A stretch of DNA of 64,000 nt, from the NCBI GenBank assembly GCA_002269645.1, contig NIVC01000219.1:286262-350261 (forward strand), written 5' to 3'. The DNA is from Macrostomum lignano (lineage: Eukaryota). This document shows, piece by piece, positions 8,557-36,600 of the stretch. Each line of letters starts with the position of its first letter. The first letter of the stretch is position 1. The notes under the pieces were generated by a model. It saw nothing but the letters and a program-made list of their open reading frames with translations, had not been told where the DNA came from and did not search any database. Both the position numbers and the translations under genes were made by a program.

Positions 8557-11500
8557 TCAAAAAACTTCTGGGTAAACGATATTTTTGGTTCTTTCGCCGC
8601 ACATTCGAACTCGAACATTACAAACATTTTTTGCTCTGGAAAGTGCAGTGTAGAGCTGTCCATGCGCAAAACAGCTACCTGCAAGGTCAATTCCAACTAC
8701 GTCAAGGGATTGGCCTTGTGCTTTATGAATAGTCATGCAGAAACAGGGTCGTAGAGGAAATTGTAGCCTTCTGAACTTAACAGGTAGATCCAAATTACTT
8801 GGTATCAATGGTACGCGCGGCAACAAAACTGTTTCGCCTTTGAATTGACCAGCAGCAATTTGACATTGTAAGATATTGTTTCGCAATTCCTTAATGATTA
8901 ATCGTGTTCCGTTGCACAGTCGTGGTGGGTTTAAGTTTCGTAGTAGAACTACAGGCATCCCGCATTTGAGACAAAGCCGATGCTTTGGCAATCCAGGTGC
9001 GTCCATACTATTCAGCACTTCAGGTGGATAGTGCGTCAAGTCATCCTCATCCTCGACACTGTCAATTGATCTATATTCGCGATCAACGCCTGGAAATAAA
9101 TCTAAACATGCATCGTTAATTTTATCAACGGAGTCGTTTAGTGGAGCTAAAATGACGCGGCTCTCAAACAACTTCTCCCTGTTTTCGATCCCAGCGAACG
9201 TTGGGTATACAAACCGGATCAAATCAACATCAGTAGCGTCACCAGGCAAAACGATTTCGGGTGGTAGCACGATATTGGCGTCTGAATCACTCGGTATCGA
9301 ACCTTCGCCAACCTAAAATGGTTAGAAACAAAATAGAGTAAAGTATGAGACCCACTGTCACATCCTGCTTTCAATAATTCGAAAGTAACTTACCCGAAGT
9401 AGAAACTCAGCTTACCAGTTTGCCGATTGATCGACAGAGCCACTGTTAAAAAGTCGAATGTTTCGTGTCAAGTGATGTCTTTGAAACTTTAACCACAGAG
9501 CTGATCGACTTACACAGGCGATTACATTGTTTGCGCGTGTTCCATGTTTTACGACCGGCAGCAGCTGCCGAAAGTCGCCACAACAAACAACTGTTATTCC
9601 GCCAAACGGAGCTTCATTATCTCTAATGTCTCTTAAACTTCGATCAACCGCTTCCAGATCTTTTCTGTTAACCATCGATATCTCATCCCACACAATAAGC
9701 TCGGTTTTTCTGAAGATGGACGCCAGTTTGGATTGAGCACCAACGGAACATACTTCCCTTTCGAATCTCATAGTCCTTACCGGAATCTTGAACACCGAAT
9801 GTGCAGTTTGACCCCCAGGAAGCAGGGTGGCCGCAATTCCGGAGGACGCTACAGCAAGAGCCATCTGCCCTCGGCTGCGGACAAACGAAAGGATAACTTC
9901 CAGCAAGTAGGTTTTGCCTGTTCCAGCCGGCGCATCGACAAATTGCAAGTCACCAGTTTTGTTCGAAATGTTAGTAATAACTTGATCGTATATGCTTCTC
10001 TGTTCGTCAGTAAGCAAAGGCAATCGTTCAGTTAAGATGTCAGACTGTTCCATCGGATCGAACTGGATTGGCCCAGCCTTGGGTATTTCGCTTGCTGCTG
10101 GTAGACCATAGTCTGGTAGATTGCGACCTCCCATGAACTTAATCATCGACTGAAGCTCTCGAAGAACCAAGTCGTCACCTCGTCATCATTTAAACCCGAG
10201 TTTCGATAGCGCCAATCTTCACTCATGAACTCGGAGAAATCCCGCCACAGTTCAGTAGCATCAACTGGTTCGCCCCAGACTAAGATGACCGCGAATAAAT
10301 GACGCAGGGCCTTGGGCATTCGTGTCGGAGCGGCCTCATTCAAACTGAGTCTCCAGTGATAGTCGTGCTCCAATAGCTGCCGAGCAACGCATGCAGACCT
10401 ATACGTCGTGTGTTCGACTTCGTCCACAGTGCGCAAATGTTTGTAGCATGTGGGTCCTCTAACGTGCAGCAGCAACAGCCGGAGGTAAAACAAATCGCCC
10501 GTTCTTGGACTCACTGTGTACATGCGGGCAATGTTAGTAGTGCGTTTTACACCACGAAAGCCACTAACTGAAGTTCCTTGCTGAGCACGACGCCATTCCT
10601 TTGCTTCCTTGTGCCATACATAGTAAGATGGTGCTTCGATATAAAGCAACCGTTTAGCAAACTCGTCGACGCAACAGAGTTTGAAAATGCTGTAAGCATT
10701 GAGTCACTTGGTGTGCGTGCTTTGGCGCGTGCATTTTCTTCATTGAAGTAAACCGGCTGCTGACCTGGTAAATGAACGCAAAGTCTGATTACTGCTGGAA
10801 AGCGGTTGTGGATTTGGAAGCCTAAGATTGTATTTACTGCTTCCATTGGGCCTATGTATCTGGACGATAAATACTCGGCGATTTCGTTGACCACGGTTGG
10901 TTCTGCCGGATGCTCCTGTGGCTGCTCCTGTTGTTCTTGTTGCTGTGGCATTCGCTGTTCTGATTGCTGTTCTCGTTGCTGCTGCTGTTGTTCTTGTTGA
11001 TGCTGTTGTGGCTTGGGTTGCTCTTGTGGATCTTGCTTTTCATCGATTCTGGAAACTTTAAATGTTGCCATGTCACCACTCTTTAGCAAATATTTAATTA
11101 TATATTTGACGGCCTTGACGGTCGCACATACTTCAACATTTAAGTGACATGCGAATTCTCTCAATAGATCAGGATTATAAGGCACAACCCATCGATTGTC
11201 CATTTCAACCTGACGACCGCTGCATTGCTTTGTGACAGTGAAGCCTCCCATCACAGGGGACCGTCTCCGGTAAAAAGGATAGCCGGAATCATTCACGAGC
11301 GTCTCAGGTAAAAAGTCTTTTGGAAAATTCTTCGAACAACTATTTTTTCCATGCAAGAACACCTAGGGTTGAGAGCTCCGCAAGGACCATGGATCATGTG
11401 TGTTCGAACCAGCTGATAAAGAACAGGCTGCTTGCTAGGGTCCGGGATCTCTGTTGAGACGAACTGATCATATTTGTCTGGTGTAACTCGATACTGAGGT

Positions 11501-11794
11501 GCCAACCAAAGAAGAATGTGCACGTGTGGAAGGCCACGCTTCTGGTACTCCAATGCGCAGACATGCGCTTGAACTTCGCCGAAATTAGTTTTTAGCCGTT
11601 TGAGTAATTGAGCGAACACGCGCGGCATCTAACCTGTCAGACCGTGCACTTATGGATTCGTTCTGTATACGCTTCCGACTATACTCTAGTTGTTTCTCAA
11701 GCCGCGAATTACGCTCCTCCGCTGTTTCCTGCCGACGACGCAATTTTGCTTCCCGACTCTTTACTAACTCACTCTTTCGCTTCCTCTTCGGCAT
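8557..11794 (-). pseudogene. Helitron RepHel (HUH Rep + PIF1 helicase), frameshifted and internally deleted
   Basis: EYQKRGLPHVHILLW, YIIKYLLK, APAGTGKT, WDEISM, GDFRQLLPV and TIHKAQGQSL motifs; one intron at 9313-9393. Several frameshifts, an in-frame stop at 9412-9414, and a jump near 11620 from the N-terminal basic repeat directly to the region before Rep motif II. Confidence 0.9.
10915..11040 (-). repeat. CAG/CAA-rich poly-Gln tract in the RepHel linker
   Basis: Translates as QEQPKPQQHQQEQQQQQREQQ... Confidence 0.8.
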
Positions 11795-12879
11795 GAGCGA
11801 CAGCACACCCGCGCCCAGGTATCAAAAACTAAGAGACACATTCACATGAAATTGTTGAGACCGGTCGACCGGTTCAGGCCGACAAATAATCGAACAACAA
11901 ACAGAAGATCAGACAGGTCGACCGGTTCAGGCTGACAAACAAACAAACAAACAGAAGATCAGACAAATCACTCCAATCCAGCACGAATACGAATGAATCG
12001 AAGTTGAACAGACTCACCGGTTGAACTCACCGGTTGAACTCACCTTAAAGAACTTCAAGGTTATAAAATCAATGCGAGAAAAATACACTATATAATTAGC
12101 TTTATATATTGAAAGACTTTATTTAGACTCGAGCCGCCGCTGCTGCTGCTGCTGATGCTGCGGCCGCGTAGTCAACTTCACGGACCACCATAGATATAAA
12201 ATTGAAAATTTAACTCTGACTGCGAGAAAAATACACTAATTAGATAGGCGAAATACAGTATTTCTCCAATTTGAGAGGCTTCACACTACGACATCAAAAT
12301 GAAAATTAGACCACATAATCCCAGTAGAATTCCACATCGAATGAAACAAATTTGACGAAAATCTACCAAGTGGTTCAAGAGGAGATGCGAAACTTATAAA
12401 CAAAGTTACAAACATTTTCAGATTTAGTATATAAGAAGAATGATGACAGTGTCAGTGACAGTGATGATGATAGTGACAGGTACTGCCGTTGGCTTGGTAT
12501 TTGTAGGCCTACTATGAGCTTGCTTTGTTGGTTTGTTGTAGCTGACTGGTGGTAATGGTGCATACTGCAGTTGGTCTCGGTCAGTTGGTCGCGGGTTCGA
12601 TTGTTGTCTAATTGACTGAATAACATCAGTTCTTGCATAAGAGCGATCTAGCTCGGTTGTCTGTCTCTCAATATGAATCGAGGTTACTCTGGCAAGAGAT
12701 GTAGAATATGATGCTCTTGCAGCAGAATTGGATGTGGTGGCCTCGTGGCAAATGCGTTTACACTGATCTGGAGGTGGTTGCGTGAAGACACCATTCTTGA
12801 ATGCTGTAATAATGATTGGATGAGGGAAAATTTGGTATAGGTGCGTATATACAATGTATATAGAAACTGAACTAGCAAA

Positions 12880-14851: not shown

Positions 14852-16131
14852 TAGAAGCTGATTGAGTGATTGTTAAAATATTCCACTAGTGGCCCGAATT
14901 CTTTTTTTTAGCAATGATAGATAATTTTCAAAAGGAAAAGCAGAGATGTCCTCAGCTGTTACAGTATCTCCTAAATAATCGCATAGGTGCAGCAGACAAT
15001 GAAAGTTAAACGAATAAAAGCAGCGGTCAAATAGTTCCTCCACTTTGACAACAAATAGCTCAATCATTACACTGGCATATGACTTTAGATGAAGAAGTCG
15101 CGGCGAGGAGAGAATATACATGGCCATATGAAGGAGAAGAAAGTGCTGGTAATAATCATCTCTTAAGCTGTTGCGTAAAACAAATGGACCAAAGTATAGA
15201 AGCCAGCCTTGAAACTCGAAAGCCTTAAAATGGCACAGTTCATTTGTATGGCGTATTTTGCTCTGAAAGTCAGATGGAATACATTTCTGCAATGCTGTGA
15301 CCTGGGCGTTAACATTCTTTAGCAGCTGCTGTGATAATTTACATTGAAGCCAAATGCCTTTGATGGATGTAAAATAACATTTCAAAAGTTTTTTAGTAAC
15401 TCCAAGATATACCATATGCATTGTATCAGGAACAAAGCTATTTGAAATGAAACGAGACCCAACATTGGGGATCTTACAGATAGCATATTATTTTCTTGGC
15501 CAGCAAGGTAGGATAGATCAGTTCTTTGATTTGCAGGATTATAACTACTAGGAGGAAAAACTATACGCTCACGAAAGTATTCTACTTGTTTTCGACAATA
15601 CATGCAACCAGAGTAGCCACTGTGCCCAATGACTGACATAATAAAGCTACGAGCAGGAGCATCACATACGAAAATAATAGATCCAAGTTGCCAAACTTTG
15701 TCATCAATAAAAATGCCAGATGCCTTTAGTTGTTGTAATTCCTTAGTTAAATTATCCAAAAAAGGTTCAAATTTGGTTTTCCTACTCCACAAAATATGCC
15801 CAAAAGGTAATGGATTCTTGAAACCTTTGATTTGCATTAAAATAGTCCATAAGCCAATAGATGAAGAATGAAAAAGTGGCAAACCATCTATGTTGATTTT
15901 TATTTGAGGAATAGTTCCTGACGCCATGGAAAACTTTTCTGGTGCCTGTTGAAAGGCATATATCAAATTGCTAGCCATAGACAAATATGCCAGATTATTG
16001 GATGTTATTAAGCCCACAAGATTGGTGGAACCACAGTTTGGTTTGCCCATTTTCTTAAGAAGAAACATAGACTCTGGTATACCTTGAACATTGTATCGAT
16101 TAAGGATTGCCAATAGAGCTGAAATATGTAG

Positions 16132-17312
16132 TGTGAGCATCTTTGCGTGTATTTTGTTGTAAATTGACTGCATTAGTTTCTATATTGTTATTGAATTGTT
16201 ATTTTGCTTTAGTTTAGTCATGCGTTTTTTGTGTACTTTTTCTAGTTGGTTGAAATCTAAAATGGTAAACAGGTTAGAGTTAGACGCCGTTTGTGACTCA
16301 GCGGAGGGTTGAGTTTGTCTGCGAACCCCAGCTTTGCGCGGTCAGCCAATCAGAACCGGCCTGGACCCTGGCACGCGGCAAGTTTCAATTCTACCCGGCG
16401 CCGCGGGCACAGTGCAATTCGGCTTAGCAAGCGGCCGGCCAGACGACCACCACCCGGCTTGAGGGGGGTTTTGAGGGGTTGCGACTCTGACTATATATGA
16501 ATGTGTGTTTGGCAATCAGATCTCACTTTTTCCTTCTCCCTTTCCCCGGTTTTGTCTTGTCCAGCTTCCCGGCCGGTGGCCCGATTTTCTCCTCTCGTTG
16601 GTTCGCGCTTTGAGGCGCCTGAATTCATCACCCCGGTCCGTATTTTTGTTCCCGCCCAACCGCAGTAGTCTTGTGGCGTAACGTCTACGGCAAATTTCTG
16701 TCTGAAGTCGTCGCTATCAAGCGCGGTTAGTTAGAGACTGTCGGATCTGATCAAGTACGCGGCCTCGACCCCGAGGGCCTCAGTGTTACACTGAAGGGCA
16801 GTGCCGATAGAATTTAGTCGGTACTCCGTTGAACGGTCGGTTCGGCAGGGCTCTCGTTTGAGTGTAGGTTCTGGCTTAGGCCAGGGGTTAGGAGTCTTCT
16901 CCGTGGTCGTGTTCGGTTCTCCTTCTTCTTCTTCGAGCTGAGATCCGCTTGTCAGTGCGTAATATAATCATTATTATTAATCGTTATTATTCGTTATCAT
17001 CAGTCTAATTATCTGCGTCGCGAATTGCTTGAATCCTGTAACTTGTATAACCGAATTAAATCGTCTAGCCAATTATCAGTTGTATCACATAGGATTATCA
17101 CTCTCTAAATCTTTCGGTTTGTGTTCCCTCGTGTTCTTTCTTTTCTTGTACTGTACCTGCGGCTATTGGAGAAAGACTGGTAGGACTCGCCGACCGGCGA
17201 TAGGCGATTAGGATTAATAGCTTTAAAATCTCCAAACGCTCCAAGTAGGTTTGTCTAGGGCCTAAATAATTGCTTACCGTGCATGCTATTATCTAATTGC
17301 CTATTTATCACA
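16132..17312. mobile_element. Solo-LTR-like insertion (~1.18 kb)
   Basis: Bounded by TGTGA...TCACA, interrupts the CACTA frame between PYRTM and LHISALL, and has a TATA-like element near 16493. The TSD is not clean. Confidence 0.5.
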
Positions 17313-20300
17313 CATAGTTCGGTAAGGAAGGTTGAAAGTCAAATAAAACAAGAAAAGCTGTTCTGCCAATGTTAGCTCAGGTGCATCAGGCAAGGGAATA
17401 TCAGATTCTTTTTCATTGCTTTCATCAAATAAGCTATCCAATAGATCATTAAAGCCTATTTCTTCATTTTGCTCTTCCATTTCTATGCTATTACCATTGC
17501 TTTGTTCATCCAAGGATATAACAGTAGCTTCCATAGCACAAGCAGTAGCATCTTGATTATCTCGTAGATTAGTAGCTTCCAAATCATTAAGTCTAGTTAG
17601 TTCTTTTAAAATACTTTTAATCTTGCGATTTTGTACTCGAGCAGCACTTTTATTTGGTGACATATTAAATAGGACAATATCCAATGGGTCAAAATTATTT
17701 CTGGATTGAGTACAAAGCTTGCAAGTTAAAACGGTATATAATTATTAAATTTATACTTCTTTGTGATTTAATCTGCAAAGTAGAATAAATGTGTAACTTA
17801 CTCTTTAAGTTATTCTAAATAGTAAGCTAACTATTTTGATATTTTACATAATAAGTCTTTAGCTAGCCAAAAAACAGACAAATTAGATATAATATTGACA
17901 TTAAAAAAAACTTTAAAAATATTTTATAGATAGCAATAACACATAAACATATTAATATGCTACAAAATTTCTAAATACTATGGGCCCTTAAAATATTGCA
18001 ATCCTTTGTGAAATTGATGGTATTAGGCTTATAGCCATAGGCTATAACTAATGATTAATTAAATTTTTAAATATCTCTAAATTAATACACTGAAATTACA
18101 TTGCTTCAAATTATTATTTGCTTAAGATAGCCTTCTAGGCTAGGTTATTATACAATAGAGATATTATAGCATTCTGACTCTAGATTGTATCTTGAAATTT
18201 GATGTAGCCTTGTAGGATATAATTTTGTATCCAGATTTTTTTAATTTATAAAAAGTCCATGAAATGGGACTTTAAAATATGGAGTATTTATAGACATGGT
18301 TGCCATGCAGGCTCTTATTGTGATGGCTGCTATGCCTCTAGTATGGGGACTTTATATTTAAGGGACACAGCTGCCATGTCTATAAGCTCCAATATTACAG
18401 AAATGGCGGCCATGTCTATAAGTATAGTCCTAATCAATATTAAAGCCACGGCCACTATGCCTATAAGCTTTTGCATTATAGACACAGCCACATGTCTCTA
18501 AGTGTGGCATTTAAAATATTGTATCCCAACCCTTAAAATTGCATCTTGAATTTTGGGACACAATGAGATTTTGCATCTTACGTAGCCTAGCCTAGTGAAA
18601 AAATCTAGCTATTACAGATCTAAAGAATTTTATAACAATTATAATTTGACTAGTCTATACTCGTAGGTCTAATTTTAGGTTTTGCCTAATTAGCTAGATA
18701 TATAGCAATTTAGTGGGACTATAAATGAATATAGGAATATTATACAATTTTCCTAGACTCTAGAGGCTTCAATTCTTATAAGTTTATTACTTAGCTATTA
18801 AGTCACAAGTGAAATGGGCAATTTTGGGCAAAAAGGTTATCAATATAAAAGTAGTAGCCTTGTATAATTAAAGGAATATTCTAGAATCCTACAAATAGAA
18901 TAGGCCTATGACAAAAGCCTTAGGGTCAAGTCTAACATTAGCCTTTGGACTAAATAGCCAGGCCAAAGTTAGACCTAGCTAGACCTACATAAACCCTCCT
19001 ATCTTAGATATTATATTTAGCTTAAGGCCTTTGATTTCCATTGGCATTTCATGTCCATATAAAAAAATAAATATATTAAACAGTTTTCTACTGATTATAT
19101 TAAGGCACACTGGTATATACGGCTATTCAGGACAGTAGGCCTGTAGAAAATTTGTGTACCAACCAAAAAGTTATATAGTTTACAATAGTAAATAGTTCTT
19201 GTACTTAACAAGAAGCTAAACATACGCTCGTAGTAAGATTTTTATAAGTGGATGCAAAGACATGATGCGGCTGATGCCCTATACTATAGCATGACCTAAA
19301 CAATGCACCGAAATATGACGCCTGTTAATAATTCAAAAAAATATAGGTGACTACACTTCAAAAACTGGAGATTGTTCTGCATTGAGAAAAACACGCGTCA
19401 TTTTAACAAGCTATTTTATTTTTTGGAAAATTCATCTCAGGCCTTGAATAATTTAGGATTTTACAATATAGGCATCTATATATATAAATTAAGCTAAAAG
19501 TATTAATACGTTTTTTTAAAACATATGTAGAGCCTATCCATCCTTGCTTTTAAATCTAGAACATGGATTTCAGTGATTTGCTTCTGCATGTATTCCATGC
19601 AGATTGCGACCATGTAGAATCACCATTAATTCTTTTGTCGAAAAAATACAGTAATCACAGTCGATTAGTTATTTATTTGCATCTTTATAGTCTATAATGC
19701 AATTTTTAAATAAAATTACCACAATGTCTGACATTTCTTAAAATCCATGTTACAATATGGAATCGATATGGAATCCACTTACGAATTTTCACTGGGAGCC
19801 TCGACTCAAGCATCCAGCTCACCTTCAGATTCTGCAGCTTCTGAAGACCCCCTAGGCCTCGTCCTCTTCAATGTAGAGTCAATGACTTGACTCAAGTGAG
19901 CTGATAGCAGACTCCGGCAGGTTCCCTTTTTCTGCTGGCTTTTCTTTTTCCTCTATTTGCTCTTCTTGATGGCGCAGATTACCTTCCAGCGGTTGTTTTC
20001 TTGTTTTCTTTTGTCATCGCTGACGATCCTATCCTCCGATCCTCTGCAGTGCTTAGCCGTCCCCAATGCACATAGATAGGGCTGCAGTTCTTAGCCGTCC
20101 TCAATGCACAGAGATAGGGCTCATATCTCTGCAGTGCTTAGCCATCCTCAATGCACAGAAATAGGGCTCATATCTCCGCAGTGTATTCTTCTCTATACTT
20201 TTGCAGTGCCGCCTATCTCCCCAGTGCTAGTGCGGCAGTATCATAATTCGCCCTACTGCTTGTATTTTTCAGACTGCACACCGCATTCACACTGGGCTGT

Positions 20301-20726: not shown

Positions 20727-21119
20727 AGTAGTAGTATGTTATAAGGGGCTGCGCCACACTTATTGCTCGGGCGCATTGCGCGCCAGCTCGCTGGTGACTC
20801 AGCCCCTTATAACATACTACTACTACCAGGAGGTCATGGTTGCAATTGTGTGTGATAAATAAATATACATATATCTGTGGGTGAGGGTGTTGAGGGTGAG
20901 GGCATGTGGGGGCATTGGCATGTGGAATATTTCACAGAACACAGATTTTCCGGAATTTTTATACTTTTAAAAAAGGAGGGTGCCCTCGCCCTCATGCCCT
21001 CACTCATTTGAAAAATCACTAAAAACAGGTGAAAAATGACTAAAAACAGGTGAAAATGGTCTGAAAACAGCGATTTTTTGTGATTTTCAAAAATTTTGAA
21101 AAGTGCAATTTTCACGATT
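20727..21119 (+). repeat. Polinton left TIR with terminal hairpin
   Basis: Near-perfect reverse complement of 26139-26532. It is cut on the inside by a Helitron at about 21120. Confidence 0.9.
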
Positions 21120-21733
21120 TCCTATATACTAAAAATGGTCTGTCTGTGTCTATGTGATCGATTAGAGAAAAAATGGCTGTACCGATTTTGTTCGAACTTG
21201 CACTGTTCGATCAGAAATTTTCCCGTGACTGTACATGCATCGTGGCTAAGAAATTTCTTGATGCTAAAGGCATTAAATATTCGAAAAACATGCTTTTTTG
21301 CAAAGGTCAAGCAAACTTTTCGACTTGAAATGCATTGTAAGAATGCTAGACAAAAAACTGACTGGTTGAATTCTGATTCTGAAATAGATTGCATCATAAC
21401 TGAATTGTAACTCCGACTTGAATTGAAAATGCAGTGTGGAAGCGTAGCACCAGACTTGATTTAGATTGCGTAACCATATTGTTAACTGATACTGACTGAC
21501 TGAGAAACTGATTATGTCATAACTGCTTCGTGTGATTTACTCTATGCTTGGATTTTAAAGTGTTGAATTATATAAGTGCAAAATTTGATGTTATCAAAAC
21601 GATGAGAGCTAGCCTAGAGGTGAACAAACTGAACTGTTAAATGCAGCGACGATGGTTCGAATTTTCATAGAGTATAATTTTTTAATTAAAGCTTTTCAAC
21701 GTCAGGAAAACTAAAAGACTTTTTAAAAAGAAT

Positions 21734-22985
21734 CGTCATGTAAAAATCATAGAAGCGTCATGTAAAAAATCATAGAAGCGTCATGTAAACAATCATAGAA
21801 GCGTCATGTAAAAAATCATAGAAGCGTCATGTAAACAATCATAGAAGCGTCATGTAAAAAATCATAGAAGCGTCATGTAAACAATCATAGAAGCGTCATT
21901 TAAACAATCATAGAAGCGTCATGTAAACAATCATAGAAGCGTCATGTAAACAATCATAGAAGCGTCATATAAAAATCATAGAAGCGTCATGTAAACAATC
22001 ATAGAAGCGTCATGTAAACAATCATAGAAGCGTCATGTAAACAATCATAGAAGCGTCATTTAAACAATCATAGAAGCGTCATGTAAACAATCATAGAAGC
22101 GTCATGTAAAAAATCATAGAAGCGTCATGTAAACAATCATAGAAGCGCCATGTAAAAAATCATAGAAGCGTCATGAAACAATCATAGAAGCGTCATGTAA
22201 AAAATCATAGAAGCGTCATGTAAAAAGCATAGAAGCGTCATGTAAAAATCATAGAAGCGTCGTATAAACAATCATAGAAGCGTCATGTAAACAATCATAG
22301 AAGCGTCATGTAAAAAATCATAGAAGCGTCATGTAAACAATCATAGAAGCGTCATGAAACAATCATAGAAGCGTCATGTAAAAAATCATAGAAGCGTCAT
22401 GTAAAAAGCATAGAAGCGTCATGTAAAAATCATAGAAGCGTCGTATAAACAATCATAGAAGCGTCATGTAAACAATCATAGAAGCGTCATGTAAACAATC
22501 ATAGAAGCGTCATGTAAACAATCATAGAAGCGTCATGAAACAATCATAGAAGCGTCATGTAAACAATCATAGAAGCGTCATGTAAAAAGCATAGAAGCGT
22601 CATGTAAAAATCATAGAAGCGTCGTATAAACAATCATAGAAGCGTCATGTAAACAATCATAGAAGCGTCATGTAAAAATCATAAAAGCGTCATGTAAACA
22701 ATCATAGAAGCGTCCTGCAGAAATCGTAGAAGCGTCATGAAATAATCATAGAAGCGTCATGTAAAAAATCATAGAAGCGTCATGTAAACAATCATAGAAG
22801 CGTCATGTAAACAATCATAGAAGCGTCATGTAAACAATCATGGAAGCGTTATGTAAAAAAATCATAGAAGCGTCATGTAAAAAGCATAGAAGCGTCATAT
22901 AAACAATCATAGAAGCGTCATATAAAAAATCATAGAAGTGTCATGTAAAAATCATAGAAGCGTCATGAAAAAATCATAGGAGCCT
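21734..22985 (+). repeat. 23-bp satellite array (ATCATAGAAGCGTCATGTAAACA)n
   Basis: Dozens of head-to-tail copies with period about 23. Confidence 0.97.
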
Positions 22986-23897
22986 CATTTAAAAACTAAT
23001 GAAAGTGTCATTTAAAAAATTAAGAAGCATCATGGTAGAATAAAAGAAGCGTCATGTCAGACATGAAGGGTGTCATGTAAAAATTAAATGCAGCTATAAT
23101 GCTGTGCTGGGGAGAAAAACTGAGACGTAAAGGCTCTCAGAGAATAACTGAGATTACGGGGGGGGGGTTCTGAGATGTCAAAGCAAAAGTCAGAAGCTAC
23201 TTCAAAGTTCATGTACTTTACTCAATTTTTTTATTGCATTATTTGTTGGCTCGCCACGGGGGGGGCGCTGATAGAAGAAGAGTCATGTAAAAAATAAAAG
23301 TAGCACTACGTATACATAAAAGAAAAGTCATGTCGAAGTTAAAAGATTCATTTGGGAATTGCTACGATGTCAAAGCTTGGTGGAAATCGTTATAGTGCTG
23401 TGATTCTTAAAGAAGGAATCACTAAAATGTCAAGGCTTAGGGGAGAAGAATTGCTGAGATTTCAAGGCTTTAGGTTGGGTTAAAGTTAGGTTTAGGTCAG
23501 GTGTGGGTTGAGGGTTATATTTTATCGGATTTCAAGGTTAACAGAATAACAGGGGATTTTTTAGATTTCAAGGTTTATGGGGGCCATCGCTGACATGTTA
23601 AGACTTACGGGGGAATATCTGAGATGTCAAGGTTCACGGGGGTATAAATGAGATTTCAAGGCTAAAGTCAGAAGCTACATGTAGTTTATTGAAAACTTTT
23701 TATTACATTATTTGATGCCTCCTCTGGGGAGGGATCGCTGATAAAAAAAGCGTAATGTAAAAAATAAAATAAGCTTCATGTCGAAGTTAAGAGATTCATT
23801 TGGGAATCTCTACGATGTCGAGGCTTGCAGGGAATCGCTATAATGCTGTAGTAGTGCTATAATGACTCTTAGAGAGAATTACTGAAATTTCAATGCT

Positions 23898-23958
23898 TTA
23901 GGGTTAGGTTAGGGTTAGGGTTAGGGTTAGGGTTAGGGTTAGGCTAGGGTTAGGGTTA
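23898..23958 (+). repeat. Interstitial (TTAGGG)n tract inside the Helitron
   Basis: About nine telomere-type hexamers; the same tract occurs in the other copies. Confidence 0.95.
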
Positions 23959-24119
23959 GAAGGTTGACAGATATTTTTAGATTTCCAAGGCTTATTTGGG
24001 GCATTGCTGAGATGTCAAGGGGGGAAGTTGATATGTTAAAGCTTGTGGGGGGGGGAATTACTGACATGTCAAGGCTTACAAGGTTTGACAGGAGATTTTT
24101 TAAGATTTCAAGGATACAT

Positions 24120-24600
24120 TATCAGAATCTCAGAATGGATTGTGTTGTTGTATTTTTCAACAATAGCTGGCAATGTGTGGAGCCACTTCTGATTACCCTG
24201 TAGATCAAATTCAAACCAGAGTTTATTTGTGAGAGTACGATTGAACCTCTCAATCATTGCATTCTTGGACTCGCCATAAATTGAAAACATCTTGTTAATA
24301 TATTCACCCCTTTCATCCTTCCTTCTAATGTTGTCTTTTGAAAACGAGTATAGCTTGTACATATGCTGATTATAAAACTCCTTGCCTTCATCTACACAAA
24401 GTCTCTCTGATCGTCTTCCTGATTCCTTAAATACTTTTTGGAAAGCTTCTGCAACTTCCGCTCCCGTCTTTGTTTTCAAAGGAACTGCCCAGGCGTAACG
24501 TGTAAAACCATCTATGATAGTTAGAGCATATTTGTAACCTCTTTCGGGCGGTAGGATAATGATATCTGCATGCCAAATTGTGTCTTGCATAGTGAATCAT
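24120..24600 (-). pseudogene. Polinton-type retroviral-like (rve/DDE) integrase, 3'-truncated
   Basis: WHADIIIL...YALTIIDGFTRYAWAVPLKTKTGAEV, LCVDEGKEFYN and KNAMIERFNRTL (D, D, E), then YNNTIHS where the Helitron junction cuts it. Confidence 0.92.
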
Positions 24601-26023
24601 TTTTCTAAATACTCTTGGCTTTCGATATTCTTTATGCAATTTTACTGCATCTTCATAGCTAAGACCCTTACCATAAATTGTTAGACAGTCTATACAATTG
24701 TTGGGGTTGTGAGTATGAATGCCTAATCCAAACCGAACTTTAGCCTTGATAATACGCTTTACTAGATTTCGAATGAGTCTCTCTTTCACAGACAAGTCAC
24801 TGGTTGGAATAGCATCTAAATCAGCTATCATTTTTTCATCAGCTATATGCTTCTTTGCTAGAGCTTCCTCTGGATTTGAAGAAGTGTTTTCAGCATCTCT
24901 ATAGTTTTTGTCATGATAGTAAGCAGTCCAATCGATTGGGTTAATTGGTAGACTGTCATACCGAGGCCGGTCTGTAATTGGATTGAGTCTCTTGTCTAAA
25001 TTTGTACCGGGCAGTTGATCCTCAGTCTTTCGAAAGAGGCTGGACTTTATCTTAAGGCTTCATCAGGATTGACCAGATCCTTCAGCCCCACCCCCATTAA
25101 GTCTCTGAACCTTCTCCATATCCTTGTCAACTTCGTTCGGACTTAGGAGCTTGGCTGCGGATTTCCACCATGTCCTCAAGCTTGTTACCATCGAACCATA
25201 GGTTCGCGGACGAAGTCCGATTGGGAACAGGAATTACCTGTGTTCCTTCAGAAGATTTCTCAACTGAAGTGGTACTTGAGGCTGTTATTGACGTACTAGA
25301 ATCGGACGGAGTTCCCGCAATTTGAAGGTGTCGCCAATCACTAAGCACTTGTTTAATGTTGGTTATAATGTTTTTGTATTGATCACCATAAAGAAATTTC
25401 AATGCAAATTCTCCTGTTATAAGGGTGATTCCATTGTCTAGTAAAATATTCTTTGGTTCCTTTGTAGTTTGATTGATGCATACATAATACAACTGATAGG
25501 TGGGATAAGAATTTTTATAGTCTAATAGTTTCTGATAATTCCTTTCACGACTTGATGAATTGTCCGTGTTATCAGAAGATTTAAGCTCTAATGCAATCTT
25601 TCGCTCAACGTGAACCAGGTCTATCTTTTTTACCTTCTCGAATCCAAAATAATTTTCTGCTAATATTTCATATAGTCTGCCTAGTCTCATTTGAATAACT
25701 TTAATCTTGTGTGAAATTATTAACTCTTCTTGAAAAAGATCATGAAGAATTTGATCATGCCCAACCTTATCATCAATTGGTTTCAGAAGAATTTCTCGAA
25801 TTGTTTGCTCCATTTTTACTATAGAAACTTTAACAAGTGCTTATTTGATGACTAGCAAGGACATTGACTTCCTCACTCAGGCCACTACGTAACCTGCAAA
25901 AGAATACCCTGGAATATGAAATTCGCCAGGATATTTTCCAGTGGTGAAGATGGGTGGTAGTTTTGTTATAGCTGACTGAATATCTAAGGCATTTCCTAGA
26001 AATATTGGTTTACTGAAGGCCAT
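24600..26023 (-). CDS. Polinton/adintovirus-type phospholipase A2 (parvovirus VP1u-like). Exon 1 is 26023-25892; exon 2 starts at 25011 and runs into the integrase N-terminus
   Basis: Joined reading MAFSK...GEFHIPGYSFAG|PGTNLDKRL...PINPIDWTAYYHDKNY...ADEKMI...KAKVRFGLG contains the Ca-binding loop (Y..GPG) and the catalytic HD. Exon 2 is open from 25011 and in frame with ORF 24427-24831. Confidence 0.88.
25012..25891 (-). ncRNA. Group I self-splicing intron, subgroup IC1, 880 nt
   Basis: The 5' exon ends in U and the intron ends in G. P1 CAGGU/GCCUG has U.G at the splice site; P2.1 GCUAGUC/GAUUGGC; P3 CACCUUCA/UGGGGGUG. Conserved elements: P AAAUUGCGGGAA, Q AAUCCGCAGC, R GUUCAGAGACU, S CUUAAGAUAAAGUC. 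P6 CUCCUAAGUCC/GGAUAUGGAG. Removing it restores AG|PG in frame. Confidence 0.92.
25127..25813 (-). CDS. Intron-encoded PD-(D/E)xK restriction-endonuclease-like protein (putative homing endonuclease)
   Basis: Intact 228-aa ORF starting in the P2.1 loop, with IQMRLG.LYE, KIDL, IALELKS and DNTDNSSS motifs. The last ~75 codons overlap the ribozyme core. Confidence 0.72.
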   Translation of the reverse strand: MEQTIREILLKPIDDKVGHDQILHDLFQEELIISHKIKVIQMRLGRLYEILAENYFGFEKVKKIDLVHVERKIALELKSSDNTDNSSSRERNYQKLLDYKNSYPTYQLYYVCINQTTKEPKNILLDNGITLITGEFALKFLYGDQYKNIITNIKQVLSDWRHLQIAGTPSDSSTSITASSTTSVEKSSEGTQVIPVPNRTSSANLWFDGNKLEDMVEIRSQAPKSERS

Positions 26024-26138
26024 TTTATATATATAAAATTTACTATCGTTAAATTAGATGACACTTTCATATTGTATATACCTGAAATTGCATTAAATTG
26101 ACCCGAGGATCCAACTTTTCTCATGGTTTTAGAGCTGG

Positions 26139-26532
26139 AATCGTGAAAATTGCACTTTTTCAAAATTTTTGAAAATCACAAAAAATCGCTGTTTTCAGAC
26201 CATTTTCACCTGTTTTCAGTCATTTTTCACTTATTTTTAGTGATTTTCAAAATGAGTGAGGGCATGAGGGCGAGGGCACCCCCCCTTTTTAAAAGTATAA
26301 AAATTCCGGAAAATCTGTGTTCTGTGAAATATTCCACATGCCAATGCCCCCACATGCCCTCACCCTCAACACCCTCACCCACAGATATATGTATATTTAT
26401 TTATCACACACAATTGCAACCATCACCTCCTGGTAGTAGTAGTATGTTATAAGGGGCTGAGTCACCAGCGAGCTGGCGCGCAATGCGCCCGAGCAATAAG
26501 TGTGGCGCAGCCCCTTATAACATACTACTACT
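26139..26532 (-). repeat. Polinton right TIR with terminal hairpin
   Basis: Ends ...CATACTACTACT, followed by the TSD ATCATT. Confidence 0.9.
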
Positions 26533-30686: not shown

Positions 30687-33600
30687 CTAGCAATCTACGC
30701 CCCCGTTGGGGAGCCAAAGAAATGCAATACACGTTTTTTTAATAAGCTACATGTATCCTTGAAATCTTAAAAAATCTTCTGTCAAACCTTGTAAGCCTTG
30801 ACATGTCAGTTATCCCCCCCCCACAAGCTTTAACATATCAACTTCCCCCCTTGACATCTCAGCAATGCCCCCAATAAGCCTTGGAAATCTAAAAATATCT
30901 GTCAACCTTCTAACCCTAACCCTAGCCTAACCCTAACCCTAACCCTAACCCTAACCCTAACCCTAACCTAACCCTAAAGCATTGAAATTTCAGTAATTCT
31001 CTCTAAGAGTCATTATAGCACTACTACAGCATTATAGCGATTCCCTGCAAGCCTCAACATCGTAGGGATTCCCAAATGAATCTCTTAACTTCGACATGAA
31101 GCTTCTTTTATTTTTTACATTACGCTTTTTTATCAGCGATCCCTACCCTGAGGAGGCATCAAATAATGTAATAAAAAGTTTTCAATAAACTACATGTAGC
31201 TTCTGACTTTAGCCTTGAAATCTCATTTATACCCCCGTGAGCCTTGACATCTCAGCTATTCCCCCCGTAAGCCTTGACATGTCAGCAATGGCCCCCATAA
31301 ACCTTGAAATCTAAAAAATCCCCTGTTAACCATGAAACCCGATAAAATATAACCCTCAACCCACACCTGACCTAAACCTAACTTTAACCCAACCTAAAGC
31401 CTTGAAATCTCAGCAATTCTTCTCCCCTAAGCCTTGACATTTTAGTGATTCCTTCTTTAAGAATAACAGCACTATAACGATTTCCACCAAGCTTTGACAT
31501 CGTAGCAATTCCCAAATGAATCTTTCAACTTCGACATGACTTTTATTTTATGTATACATAGTGCTACTTTTATTTTTTACATGACTCTTCTTCTATCAGC
31601 GCCCCCCCGTGACATGAACTTTGAAGTAGCTTCTGACTTTTGCTTTGACATCTCAGAAACCCCCCCGTAATCTCAGTTATTCTCTGAGAGCCTTTACGTC
31701 TCAGTTTTTCTCCCCAGCACAGCATTATAATTGCATTTAATTTTTACATGAACCCTTCATGTCTGACATGACGTTTCTTTTATTCTACCGTGACGCTTCT
31801 TAATTTTTTAAATGACACTTTCATTAGTTTTTAAATGAGGCTTCTATGATTTTTTCTTGACGCTTCTATGATTTTTACATGACGCTTCTATGATTTTTAT
31901 ATGACGCTTCTATGATTGTTTACATGACGCTTCTATGATTGTTTACATGACGCTTCTATGATTGTTTACATGACGCTTCAACGATTTTTTACATGACACT
32001 TCTATGATTGTTTACATGACGCTTCTATGATTTTTTACATGGCGCTTCTATGATTGTTTACATGACGCTTCTATGATTGTTTACATGACGCTTCTATGAT
32101 TGTTTACATGACGCTTCTACGATTTTTATATGACGCTTCTATGATTTTTTAAATGGCGCTTCTATGATTTTTTAATGACACTTCTATGATTTTTTACATG
32201 ACGCTTCTATGATTTTTTACATGACGCTTCTATGATTGTTTACATGACGCTTCTATGATTGTTTACATGACGTTTCTATGATTGTTTACATGACGCTTCT
32301 ATGATTGTTTACATAAAGCTTCTATGATTGTTTACATGACGCTTCTATGATTGTTTACATGACGCTTCTATGATTGTTTACATGACGCTTCTAAGATTTT
32401 TTACATGACGCTTCTACGATTTTTTACATGACGCTTCTATGATTGTTTACATGACGCTTCTATGATTTTTTAAATGACGCTTCTATGATTTTTATATGAC
32501 GCTTCTATGATTTTTTAATGACGCTTCTATGATTGTTTAAATGACGCTTCTATGATTGTTTACATGACGCTTCTATGATTGTTTACATGACGCTTCTATG
32601 ATTGTTTACATGACGCTTCTATGATTGTTTACATGACGCTTCTAAGATTTTTCACATGATGCTTCTACGATTTTTTACATGACGCTTCTATGATTGTTTA
32701 CATGACGCTTCTATGATTTTTTAAATGACGCTTCTATGATTTTTATATGACGCTTCTATGATTTTTTACATGACGCTTCTTTGATTGTTTACATGACGCT
32801 TCTACGATTTTTATATGACGCTTCTATGATTTTTTAAATGACGCTTTTATGATTTTTTAATGACGCTTCTATGATTTTTTAAATGACGCATCTATGATTT
32901 TTATATGACGCTTCTATGATTTTTTAAATGACGCTTCTATGATTGTTTACATGACGCTTCTATGATTTTTTACATGACTCTTCTATGATTTTTTAAATGA
33001 CGCTTCTATTATTTTTTAATGACGCTTCTATGATTGTTCTATGATCTTGCTTGCTTGCAATCGATTAGAGATAAAATGGCTGGACCGATTTTGTTCGAAC
33101 TTGCACTGTTCGATCAGAAATTTTCCCGTGACTGTACATGCATCGTGGCTAAGAAATTGTTCGATGCTAAAGGCATTAAATATTCGAAAAACATGCTTTT
33201 TTGCAAAGGTCAAGCAAACTTTTCGACTTGAAATGTATTGTAAGAATGCTAGACAAAAAACTGACTGGTTGAATTCTGATTCTGAAATAGATTGCATCAT
33301 AACTGAATTGTAACTCCGACTTGAATTGAAAATGCAGTGTGGAAGCGTAGCACCAGACTTGATTTAAATTGCGTAACCATATTGTTAACTGATACTGACT
33401 GACTGAGAAACTGATTATGTCATAACTGCTTCGTGTGATTTACTCTATGCTTGGATTTTCAAGTGTTGAATTATATAAGTGCAAATTTTGATGTTATCAA
33501 AACGATGAGAGCTAGCCTAGAGGTAAACAGACTGAACTGCTAAATGCAGCGACGATGGTTCAAATTTTCATAAAGTATAATTTTTTTAATTAAAGCTTTT

Positions 33601-36600
33601 CAACGTCAGGAAAACTAAAAGACTTTTTAAAAACAAGCGTCATGTAAAAATCATAGAAGCGTCATTTACAAAATCATAGAAGCACCATTTAAAAAATCAT
33701 AGAAGCGTCACGTAAAAATATCATAGAAGCGTCATGTAAACAATCATAGAAGCGTCATTTAAAAAATCGTAGAAGCGTCATGTAAAAAATCATAGAAGCG
33801 TCATATAAAAATCATAGAAGCGTCATATAAAAATCATAGAAGCGTCATTTAAAAAATCATAGAAGCGTCATGTAAACAATCATAGAAGCGTCATGTAAAA
33901 AATCGTAGAAGCGTCATGTAAAAAATCTTAGAAGCGTCATGTAAACAATCATAGAAGCGTCATGTAAACAATCATAGAAGCGTCATGTAAACAATCATAG
34001 AAGCTTTATGTAAACAATCATAGAAGCGTCATGTAAACAATCATAGAAACGTCATGTAAACAATCATAGAAGCGTCATGTAAAAAATCATAGAAGCGTCA
34101 TGTAAAAAATCATAGAAGTGTCATTAAAAAATCATAGAAGCGCCATTTAAAAAATCATAGAAGCGTCATATAAAAATCGTAGAAGCGTCATGTAAACAAT
34201 CATAGAAGCGTCATGTAAACAATCATAGAAGCGTTATGTAAACAATCATAGAAGCGCCATGTAAAAAATCATAGAAGCGTCATGTAAACAATCATAGAAG
34301 TGTCATGTAAAAAATCGTTGAAGCGTCATGTAAACAATCATAGAAGCGTCATGTAAACAATCATAGAAGCGTCATGTAAACAATCATAGAAGCGTCATAT
34401 AAAAATCATAGAAGCGTCATGTAAAAATCATAGAAGCGTCAAGAAAAAATCATAGAAGCCTCATTTAAAAACTAATGAAAGTGTCATTTAAAAAATTAAG
34501 AAGCGTCACGGTAGAATAAAAGAAACGTCATGTCAGACATGAAGGGTTCATGTAAAAATTAAATGCAATTATAATGCTGTGCTGGGGAGAAAAACTGAGA
34601 CGTAAAGGCTCTCAGAGAATAACTGAGATTACGGGGGGGTTTCTGAGATGTCAAAGCAAAAGTCAGAAGCTACTTCAAAGTTCATGTCACGGGGGGGGCG
34701 CTGATAGAAGAAGAGTCATGTAAAAAATAAAAGTAGCACTATGTATACATAAAATAAAAGTCATGTCGAAGTTGAAAGATTCATTTGGGAATTGCTACGA
34801 TGTCAAAGCTTGGTGGAAATCGTTATAGTGCTGTTATTCTTAAAGAAGGAATCACTAAAATGTCAAGGCTTAGGGGAGAAGAATTGCTGAGATTTCAAGG
34901 CTTTAGGTTGGGTTAAAGTTAGGTTTAGGTCAGGTGTGGGTTGAGGGTTATATTTTATCGGGTTTCATGGTTAACAGGGGATTTTTTAGATTTCAAGGTT
35001 TATGGGGGCCATTGCTGACATGTCAAGGCTTACGGGGGAATAGCTGAGATGTCAAGGCTCACGGGGGTATAAATGAGATTTCAAGGCTAAAGTCAGAAGC
35101 TACATGTAGTTTATTGAAAACTTTTTATTACATTATTTGATGCCTCCTCAGGGTAGGGATCGCTGATAAAAAAGCGTAATGTAAAAAATAAAAGAAGCTT
35201 CATGTCGAAGTTAAGAGATTCATTTGGAAATCCCTACGATGTTGAGGCTTGCAGGGAATCGCTATAATGCTGTAGTAGTGCTATAATGACTCTTAGAGAG
35301 AATTACTGAAATTTCAATGCTTTAGGGTTAGGTTAGGGTTAGGGTTAGGGTTAGGGTTAGGGTTAGGGTTAGGCTATGGTTATGGTTAGAAGGTTGACAG
35401 ATATTTTTAGATTTCCAAGGCTTATTGGGGGCATTGCTGAGATGTCAAGGGGGGAAGTTGATATGTTAAAGCTTGTGGGGGGATAACTGACATGTCAAGG
35501 CTTACAAGGTTTGACAGAAGATTTTTTAAGATTTCAAGGATACATGTAGCTTATTAAAAAAACGTGTATTGCGTTTCTTTGGCTCCCCAACGGGGGGCGT
35601 AGATTGCTAGTGACGCTTCTATGATTGTTTACATGACGCTTCTATGATTGTTTACATGACGCTTCTATGATTGTTTACATGACGCTTCTATGATTGTTTA
35701 CATGACGCTTCTAAGATTTTTTACATGACGCTTCTACGATTTTTTACATGACGCTTCTATGATTGTTTACATGACGCTTCTATGATTTTTTAAATGACGC
35801 TTCTATGATTTTTATATGACGCTTCTATGATTTTTTACATGACGCTTCTACGATTTTTTAAATGACGCTTCTATGATTGTTTACATGACGCTTCTATGAT
35901 ATTTTTACGTGACGCTTCTATGATTTTTTAAATGGTGCTTCTATGATTTTGTAAATGACGCTTCTATGATTTTTACATGACGCTTGTTTTTAAAAAGTCT
36001 TTTAGTTTTCCTGACGTTGAAAAGCTTTAATTAAAAAAATTATACTTTATGAAAATTTGAACCATCGTCGCTGCATTTAGCAGTTCAGTCTGTTTACCTC
36101 TAGGCTAGCTCTCATCGTTTTGATAACATCAAAATTTGCACTTATATAATTCAACACTTGAAAATCCAAGCATAGAGTAAATCACACGAAGCAGTTATGA
36201 CATAATCAGTTTCTCAGTCAGTCAGTATCAGTTAACAATATGGTTACGCAATTTAAATCAAGTCTGGTGCTACGCTTCCACACTGCATTTTCAATTCAAG
36301 TCGGAGTTACAATTCAGTTATGATGCAATCTATTTCAGAATCAGAATTCAACCAGTCAGTTTTTTGTCTAGCATTCTTACAATACATTTCAAGTCGAAAA
36401 GTTTGCTTGACCTTTGCAAAAAAGCATGTTTTTCGAATATTTAATGCCTTTAGCATCGAACAATTTCTTAGCCACGATGCATGTACAGTCACGGGAAAAT
36501 TTCTGATCGAACAGTGCAAGTTCGAACAAAATCGGTCCAGCCATTTTTTCTCTAATCGATCACATAGACACAGACAGACCATTTTTAGTATATATAGAGA

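Follow-up and report, generated by a model that had tools for sequence, protein, structure and literature searches.

The Polinton copy and its interrupted gene

The window, i.e. the whole 64,000-nucleotide stretch of Macrostomum lignano DNA that was analysed (contig NIVC01000219.1, positions 286,262 to 350,261), contains a Polinton copy at 20727-26532, with the same 6 bases flanking both ends as a target-site duplication (Table 1). The terminal inverted repeats, the 6-bp target duplication and the rve integrase are Polinton or adintovirus-like traits; capsid, packaging ATPase and protein-primed polymerase genes are missing from this copy, which has an internal deletion and includes some 3 kb of unrelated repeats. 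Longer copies have double-jelly-roll and A32 ATPase matches in Pfam, as well as polymerase-like ORFs that were named by eye, their sole Pfam match being Endonuclease_7. The Endonuclease VII domain is present both in the polymerase-like ORF at L130:1831-4425 and in a 478-aa ORF at L106:4083-5516. An Rfam match to MIR156 in the terminal repeat is due to chance (28 bits vs 62). The window also contains fragments of Helitron-like Rep/helicase, recognised by eye in the list of ORFs (9412-11806 and 42662-45095), broken transposase-like ORFs (15000-17700), several copies, both direct and inverted, of a repeat that includes 23-nt tandem arrays, one of them within the Polinton (21100-24100, 30800-36000), and telomere-like CCCTAA repeats near 30910.

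In natural intron-less copies a PLA2 domain and an rve integrase form one ORF of 423-452 aa with both Pfam domains. PLA2 is fused in frame to the integrase at L110:5083-6438 and L131:4071-5339; the PLA2X protein of the adintovirus paper, in the part of its text available to us, carries a protein-X-like tail, unlike the fusion found here. Exon 2 of the window copy has a frameshift near 24,590 and is cut off near 24,110.

Table 1. Features of the Polinton copy and its intron (positions in the window).
Feature	Position	Strand	Evidence or remark
Exon 1 of PLA2-integrase gene, 44 codons	25892..26023	-	continuous 452-aa ORF in natural intron-less copies
Exon 2: remaining parvovirus-type PLA2 domain and rve integrase	24108..25011	-	PF08398, PF00665
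Group I intron, 880 nt, terminal G	25012..25891	-	Rfam RF00028, 87.9 bits; precise absence from intron-less copies
5' half of split site: GGT, Gly codon, U at -1	25892..25894	-	U.G pair in P1
3' half of split site: CC of Pro codon	25010..25011	-	
P1 helix and internal guide sequence	25878..25896	-	8-bp helix, 3-nt loop
5' arm of 12-bp stem enclosing nuclease domain, between P2 and P3	25832..25843	-	perfect inverted repeat with 25342-25353
3' arm of nuclease-enclosing 12-bp stem	25342..25353	-	pairs with 25832-25843
Ribozyme core P3-P9	25021..25330	-	RF00028 match; P7 G-binding pair
Intron ORF, 228 aa: Eco47II-family PD-(D/E)xK nuclease and tail	25127..25813	-	PF09553 above cut-off, E 7e-7
Nuclease domain, aa 1-158	25340..25813	-	model pLDDT 96
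Right terminal inverted repeat of Polinton	26157..26532	.	377-nt inverted repeat, 98%; end at 26532
Left terminal inverted repeat of Polinton	20727..21102	.	pairs with right repeat

On the minus strand, exon 1 ends with GCA GGT at 25892 and exon 2 starts with CCC GGT at 25011. The original prediction had placed an intron inside GGT|CC; the junction can be read directly, and the intron is absent at the exact insertion point in 10 of the 30 best PLA2 loci of the host genome (the gap is 0 in 9 of them, while a one-base indel shifts the other), which gives the boundaries a second, independent basis. The core is matched by RF00028 (E 3.5e-22, 25021-25404; gathering cut-off 50 bits). The intron shows two group I hallmarks, U.G pairing at the 5' splice site and G as its last base; the U.G pair of the folded P1 falls exactly on the splice site (z -2.9). 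The G-binding G-C pair of P7 is kept, and alignments of two families of intron-bearing elements, here called families 1 and 2, reveal three double (compensatory) changes. From these features the intron would be expected to be self-splicing. A spliceosomal intron is ruled out by the ends, TA..TG. In four contig runs (RNA type guessed) the only exon joint corresponds to the intron-less allele and is uninformative on splicing either way.

The intron-encoded nuclease

The nuclease ORF sits between P2 and P3 and its last 70 residues translate through the ribozyme core. The suggestion that this ORF is Eco47II-like was borne out: PF09553 is matched with 29.4-30.1 bits (cut-off 25.9), 93 of the 110 aligned homologues match it too, and the nuclease profile finds an annotated plasmid Eco47II-family protein with 98% probability. 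The best fold match of the nuclease model is EcoO109I (Z 9.4, rmsd 3.7, 157 aligned residues, Foldseek TM 0.66; next Z 6.4). A profile search of PDB sequences returned, at E<=1, only AvaII (E 0.64, insignificant alone), and a PDB search with the single nuclease sequence gave nothing relevant.

According to the available part of the AvaII study (PMC7337904), catalysis in this enzyme depends on D147, Q161, K163 and E123, the G:C pairs are read by N167, T168, N170 and S171 in the major groove and by N116 in the minor groove, while H108, M112 and E115 select the central W. The catalytic residues align with D65, E76, K78 and E49 of the intron nuclease, respectively, and the four major-groove positions are kept (N82, T83, N85 and S86), N85 being found in 101 of 110 homologues. 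The minor-groove N116 is replaced (M42) and the W-selecting residues are not kept, a combination that fits GGNCC. However, the missing N116 weakens the alignment argument, as does the fact that the contacts of N167, T168 and S171 are main-chain and independent of the side chain in the same source. A specificity limited to GGWCC was rejected, as GGSCC is also missing from the elements and the W-selecting residues of AvaII are not conserved.

The PD-(D/E)xK active site (D65, E76, K78) is intact in 10 out of 10 intact copies examined and in 107-109 of 110 homologues. The dN/dS values are 0.13-0.22 in 10 of 11 pairs (one pair is saturated), i.e. the nuclease is under purifying selection both in the intron-encoded and in the free-standing position described below. 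The model and the fold comparison indicate that the 158-aa domain has no added DNA-binding module and is shorter than AvaII and EcoO109I. Together with the site avoidance, the residue conservation suggests that the enzyme would cleave GGNCC.

Avoidance of GGNCC and Gly-Pro

Depletion of GGNCC in full-length intron-bearing Polintons had been put forward as a check of the original prediction, and it is complete: the site is found 0 times in 135.6 kb of 10 out of 10 intron-bearing elements (129 expected from an order-2 Markov model), these elements representing two distant families and about two independent lineages. Each stretch around the selected copies was counted separately, and the element bounds, based on terminal-repeat matches and on sequence common to the copies, were set after the site positions were known; nine full 10-kb stretches contain zero GGNCC without trimming. 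Single full elements have 0 vs 17.1 expected (P 4e-8) and 0 vs 16.6 expected (P 6e-8). Taking one representative per family, GGNCC is the lowest of 256 two-plus-two gapped words, the next word being at 0.61 and 0.31 of expectation, and GG-Nk-CC at other spacings is present 7-24 times. Both halves of the pattern contribute (observed/expected GGWCC 0/10.9 and 0/11.9, GGSCC 0/6.2 and 0/4.7 in the two families). The capsids of families 1 and 2 are only about 23-28% identical, and at such a distance (about 25%) each family must maintain the avoidance separately.

The flanking DNA is also below the Markov model (144 vs 219.5 expected), so the model overestimates somewhat; scaling the expectation by 0.66 leaves P at about 1e-5 per full element. 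Outside the Polinton the window has no GGNCC dip. A third Polinton family of this host genome, with a capsid at 48-62% to that of family 1 and no nuclease match in 20 kb, has 17 GGNCC vs 9.4 expected at the same GC in 4.6 kb, and another Polinton, outside those tested for a nuclease gene, has 7 vs 13.1 expected. Five intron-less elements contain 2, 2, 2, 5 and 1 GGNCC, the PLA2 site always being among them; in the copy with five (C1051), four lie outside the shared element sequence. The proteins follow the same course, as the proteomes of two intron-bearing elements contain 0 Gly-Pro and those of two intron-less elements contain 1, with 5.5-6.9 expected. Family 2 elements (L123-L124, L290-L293) differ from family 1 in that CCNGG is low (8 vs 25.5), CTNAG and CANTG are partly depleted and CNNNG is at about 0.83 of expectation; these partial depletions could possibly point to a second nuclease target.

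One could argue that the position of the intron is a coincidence, i.e. that introns favour conserved codons, that Gly-Pro always spells GGNCC, and that the enzyme cuts some other sequence or none. The 5-mer at the junction is forced by the fixed GGN CCN spelling of Gly-Pro and by the U that group I introns require at -1, and the split site alone is weak evidence; the Pfam match is also modest (29.4 bits vs 25.9). Nevertheless, this explanation is very improbable, as it accounts neither for the absence of exactly GGNCC, among 256 words, from whole elements nor for the match to the fold and motif of GGNCC/GGWCC enzymes. What goes beyond chance is that the split site is the sole Gly-Pro and nearly the sole GGNCC of the whole 17-18 kb element.

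The original prediction also held that a plain 5-bp cutter would be toxic and that the enzyme should have an extended specificity. In this scheme it would be a classic homing endonuclease with a GGNCC core, and the genome-wide loss would reflect relaxed cutting or an earlier state of the enzyme. Known homing enzymes do have long sites, which avoids toxicity (in the available text of PMC3943268 and PMC3984707), the intron appears to move across haplotypes with a short tract, and a tetramer could lengthen the site, as recorded for a cyanobacterial PD-(D/E)xK enzyme. Yet the loss is complete and independent of context in two lineages too distant for passive inheritance, the target flanks vary widely outside the 5 P1-paired bases, and the domain is a short one without an extra module. 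Every GGNCC is lost over 17-19 kb in the two families, whatever the flank or the middle base, which argues for a plain 5-bp cutter, since an enzyme with a long site would not require such a loss. We therefore consider an extended specificity improbable, and this part of the prediction was probably wrong.

Intron-less alleles and probable movement of the intron

The host genome (764 Mb), whose 86 matches to Wnt genes mark it as that of an animal, gave 150 scored PLA2 matches among 477 candidates and 152 nuclease matches from 247 candidates. Among the 30 best PLA2 loci, 19 have intron and nuclease, 1 has only the core and 10 have no intron, so that intron-less copies persist in the genome. A natural query spanning the junction and further stretches, with duplicates removed by contig place, yielded 32 distinct intron-less alleles. 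The Gly-Pro codons of PLA2 had been predicted to hold the site fixed, and GGNCC is indeed present in 29 of the 32 (three degraded copies have GGCCA); the expectation that GGTCC itself would be kept did not stand, as 24 alleles have GGCCC, 4 GGTCC and 1 GGGCC. None of the 32 has a nuclease within about 1.5 kb upstream.

In family 1, intron-bearing and intron-less copies differ at -6, -4, -1 and +3. The intron, together with G-6, A-4 and T-1, is found on several exon backgrounds, i.e. on haplotypes common to different intron-less lineages (L043 with L023 and L141, L017 with L024 and L142, the window with L014). The comparison covered 7 intron-bearing and 9 intron-less loci, some exons of which were unreadable. 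Beyond the 5 bases paired in P1 the target flanks of intron-bearing alleles differ widely. This pattern is the one expected from homing with a short co-conversion tract (-6 to +3), but recombination and selection for P1 pairing could equally give it. At one locus (L022, G000:C1874) a second PLA2 gene, which has no intron, is preceded about 600 nt upstream by exon 1 and the 5' end of the intron, an arrangement that looks like a recombination product.

A free-standing nuclease and an ORF-less intron in family 2

In family 2, whose PLA2 exon 2 is about 58% identical, the intron found at the same site contains no ORF and measures 299-337 nt. Immediately upstream of the PLA2 gene there is a slot occupied either by a free-standing nuclease (64-68% identical) or by an unrelated Zn-finger/HNH-like gene. 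The intron is present in 25 out of 25 loci with free-standing nuclease and PLA2 exon 2 and in 25 out of 28 with the HNH-like gene, the association of nuclease and intron not being significant (Fisher P 0.14); three further nuclease loci have no exon 2 in the stretch and two loci have neither gene. Many copies with the HNH-like gene combine intron and avoidance without a nuclease. The HNH-like gene (L127:4526-5092 and homologues, 189-199 aa), which alternates with the Eco47II-like gene upstream of PLA2, has no Pfam match, and the nearest named atlas clusters are HNH at 0.87-0.89.

In the ORF-less introns (L061-L100), 25 of 33 readable ends are A and not the canonical G, despite the kept G-binding pair of P7; many of the A-ending introns are near-identical copies, and the A end may impair splicing. 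A third intron type occurs at the same 5' site in seven loci (L064, L168-L171, L176, L177). Its guide sequence differs, its 3' end is ambiguous and the start of exon 2 is changed. It has no Rfam match at E 0.001 in the two that were scanned, a free-standing nuclease is present in all seven loci, and two such elements contain 0 GGNCC.

In layout, family 2 corresponds exactly to collaborative homing, in which a free-standing nuclease lies next to an ORF-less intron; at that site, and in the same genome, family 1 carries the composite form. The available text of a review (PMC3984707) describes collaborative homing in phages as a precursor of composite introns. In a 52-row nuclease tree (midpoint root; L017, which has no intact ORF, was dropped) the free-standing copies are sister to the enzyme of the window (97/87), within tail-bearing homologues (96/84). 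Since the clade that contains them consists of intron-linked homologues, the order here may be the opposite of that in the phage model, given the midpoint root. The tree hints at an escape of the nuclease from the intron, or at repeated capture.

Relatives of the nuclease and the methyltransferase

Out of 17 close homologues of the nuclease (46-65% identity) ten have tails that translate the ribozyme core. The full layout also exists outside this genome, in metagenomic contig L198, where the intron lies at the same site, GGT|CC, and the nuclease is 55% identical; an Rfam scan of 20 relative loci detected an intron only in this contig and none in the other 19. In IMG/VR, neither the nuclease alone nor the intron-less PLA2 region found a relative, and the pattern of the intron 5' end gave 120 matches; DNA was at hand for 80 of these, and neither PLA2 nor nuclease nor core occurs in them.

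Distant relatives (about 30-35% identity) are found at 90 loci in IMG/VR and metagenomes, four of the IMG/VR names being tagged GVMAG (giant virus). A C5 methyltransferase adjoins the nuclease in 27 of the 28 longer distant loci checked, and the 28th ends about 550 bases beyond the gene. Plasmid relatives of this methyltransferase adjoin annotated Eco47II-family enzymes in 3 of the 3 records opened (ranks 1, 2 and 4). In the Polintons no cognate methyltransferase lies beside the nuclease: a C5 methyltransferase was found neither in 55 host-genome stretches nor in the window, and other classes were covered by Pfam on 26 element proteins. Around the methyltransferase-paired relatives the avoidance is weak (GGNCC ranks last among 16 words in 6 of 44 loci and totals 371 vs 504, with low power at 21-30% GC), as expected if methylation protects.

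Such pairs, common in viral and metagenomic contigs, raise the question whether an outside enzyme drives the avoidance, e.g. that of a co-infecting large virus with a GGNCC restriction-modification system; the intron would then guard the last site, and the element's own nuclease would be a passenger or a late addition. The family-2 copies in which the HNH-like gene replaces the nuclease, and the depletion of intron-less copies, would agree with this. We find it quite improbable, because the nuclease is under purifying selection in both positions and no depletion is seen in the related family of this host genome; moreover, copies without the gene recombine with gene-bearing ones, so that shared avoidance is expected either way.

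Proposed mechanism

We propose that the product of the intron ORF is an active, type II restriction-like nuclease directed at plain GGNCC, and that the Polinton is protected by loss of the site together with an intron in the one unavoidable Gly-Pro site; we put the probability of this reading at roughly three in four. The ancestors of the nuclease would have been the R half of restriction-modification pairs, the methyltransferase having gone in Polintons. Self-protection would consist in purging GGNCC and hence Gly-Pro from all other proteins: as Gly-Pro always reads GGN CCN, synonymous changes remove the site everywhere except at Gly-Pro. Since the Gly-Pro of PLA2 cannot be lost, the intron would split the last site in the DNA, and the site would be restored only in RNA. 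The avoidance would thus make the intron indispensable to any copy with the enzyme.

Eco47II and Sau96I cut as G^GNCC; the intron nuclease probably does the same, in which case the break would bracket the insertion point. In a co-infected cell an intron-less relative would be cut at essentially one place, and repair would copy the intron in, with a tract from -6 to +3. As such a relative offers one or two sites in 17 kb, a 5-bp cutter would behave as a homing enzyme with a single site. In unrelated viruses and in host DNA it would cut at many places, as a weapon or for degradation of the host during viral replication; the host flanks have about 1.6 GGNCC per kb, so tight silencing in the integrated copies must be assumed. 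Taken as a whole, this would be a methylase-free restriction system, in which a 5-bp cutter derived from viral restriction-modification pairs is directed against rivals or the host, genome and proteome are recoded (no Gly-Pro) and the intron takes the role of the methyltransferase, a reading that we regard as somewhat probable. It suggests an unusual route for a virus to cut the DNA of its rivals while sparing its own.

Comparison with known systems

The element can be compared to mobile group I introns on the one hand and to restriction systems on the other. Mobile group I introns with homing endonucleases (six families) likewise have a ribozyme core, a nuclease ORF in a peripheral loop and a short co-conversion tract, and their intron splits the site of the enzyme (here a predicted one) at conserved codons. 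Targets of over 14 bp, often over 20, are a hallmark of homing endonucleases in the available text of two reviews (PMC3943268, PMC3984707). In contrast, the Polinton enzyme is of the Eco47II family, the evidence points to a 5-bp site, and uniqueness would come from genome-wide avoidance. I-Ssp6803I, a PD-(D/E)xK homing enzyme, belongs to a separate family (PF11645) with a 17-bp profile. The fold, the catalytic residues and the recognition loop are those of the type II restriction-modification group of Eco47II, Sau96I, AvaII and EcoO109I; there a methyltransferase protects, whereas Polintons have none, and protection would be by site loss and the intron. Another case of self-protection by site absence is PacI, an orphan restriction enzyme whose host is reported to lack its site; unlike the Polinton enzyme it is an 8-bp HNH enzyme of a bacterium, with no known intron or homing. 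The element therefore resembles both kinds of system, yet departs from each in one defining property: no C5 methyltransferase was found in the stretches searched and, judging from the avoidance and the protein model, its site would not be long.

As far as the available texts go, chlorovirus restriction-modification systems degrade host or foreign DNA (PMC12085832), and PhiPA3 gp210 is likewise an intron-encoded nuclease, directed against a co-infecting phage and proposed as a weapon between viruses (PMC11620839). The latter is an HNH enzyme of a bacterial virus with one specific target, whereas the Polinton enzyme would be a frequent cutter in an animal virus, a role that we infer. Polinton-like viruses of protists also have group I introns, about 300 nt long and located in a short gene (PMC12220804); the hosts differ, and the main text, in the part available, identifies no encoded endonuclease and has 0 mentions of Eco47. 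A literature search among mostly open papers found no published description of such an intron/GGNCC system in Polintons, though supplements such as those of PMC12220804 and PMC11835236 could contain introns of this kind; the literature compared, in part, also includes PMC11296320, PMC10748475, bioRxiv 10.64898/2026.10.13.758929, PMC2441816, PMC8502044 and PMC3424549.

In the available text of a 2025 database (PMC11835236), animal group I introns are found only in placozoans, corals and sponges and are mostly mitochondrial; here they are present in many copies in an animal nuclear genome, via integrated viruses. Because composite and free-standing forms co-exist at one site, a single genome allows the origin of mobile introns to be tested. 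Whether these Polintons replicate and compete as viruses that co-infect cells is a long-standing question, and the avoidance is evidence that they do. If the proposed mechanism is true, homing would be carried out by a 5-bp restriction enzyme, with uniqueness supplied by the genome and not by the protein, although long sites are held to be a requirement for homing enzymes; a group I intron would also have gained a protective function for its host virus.
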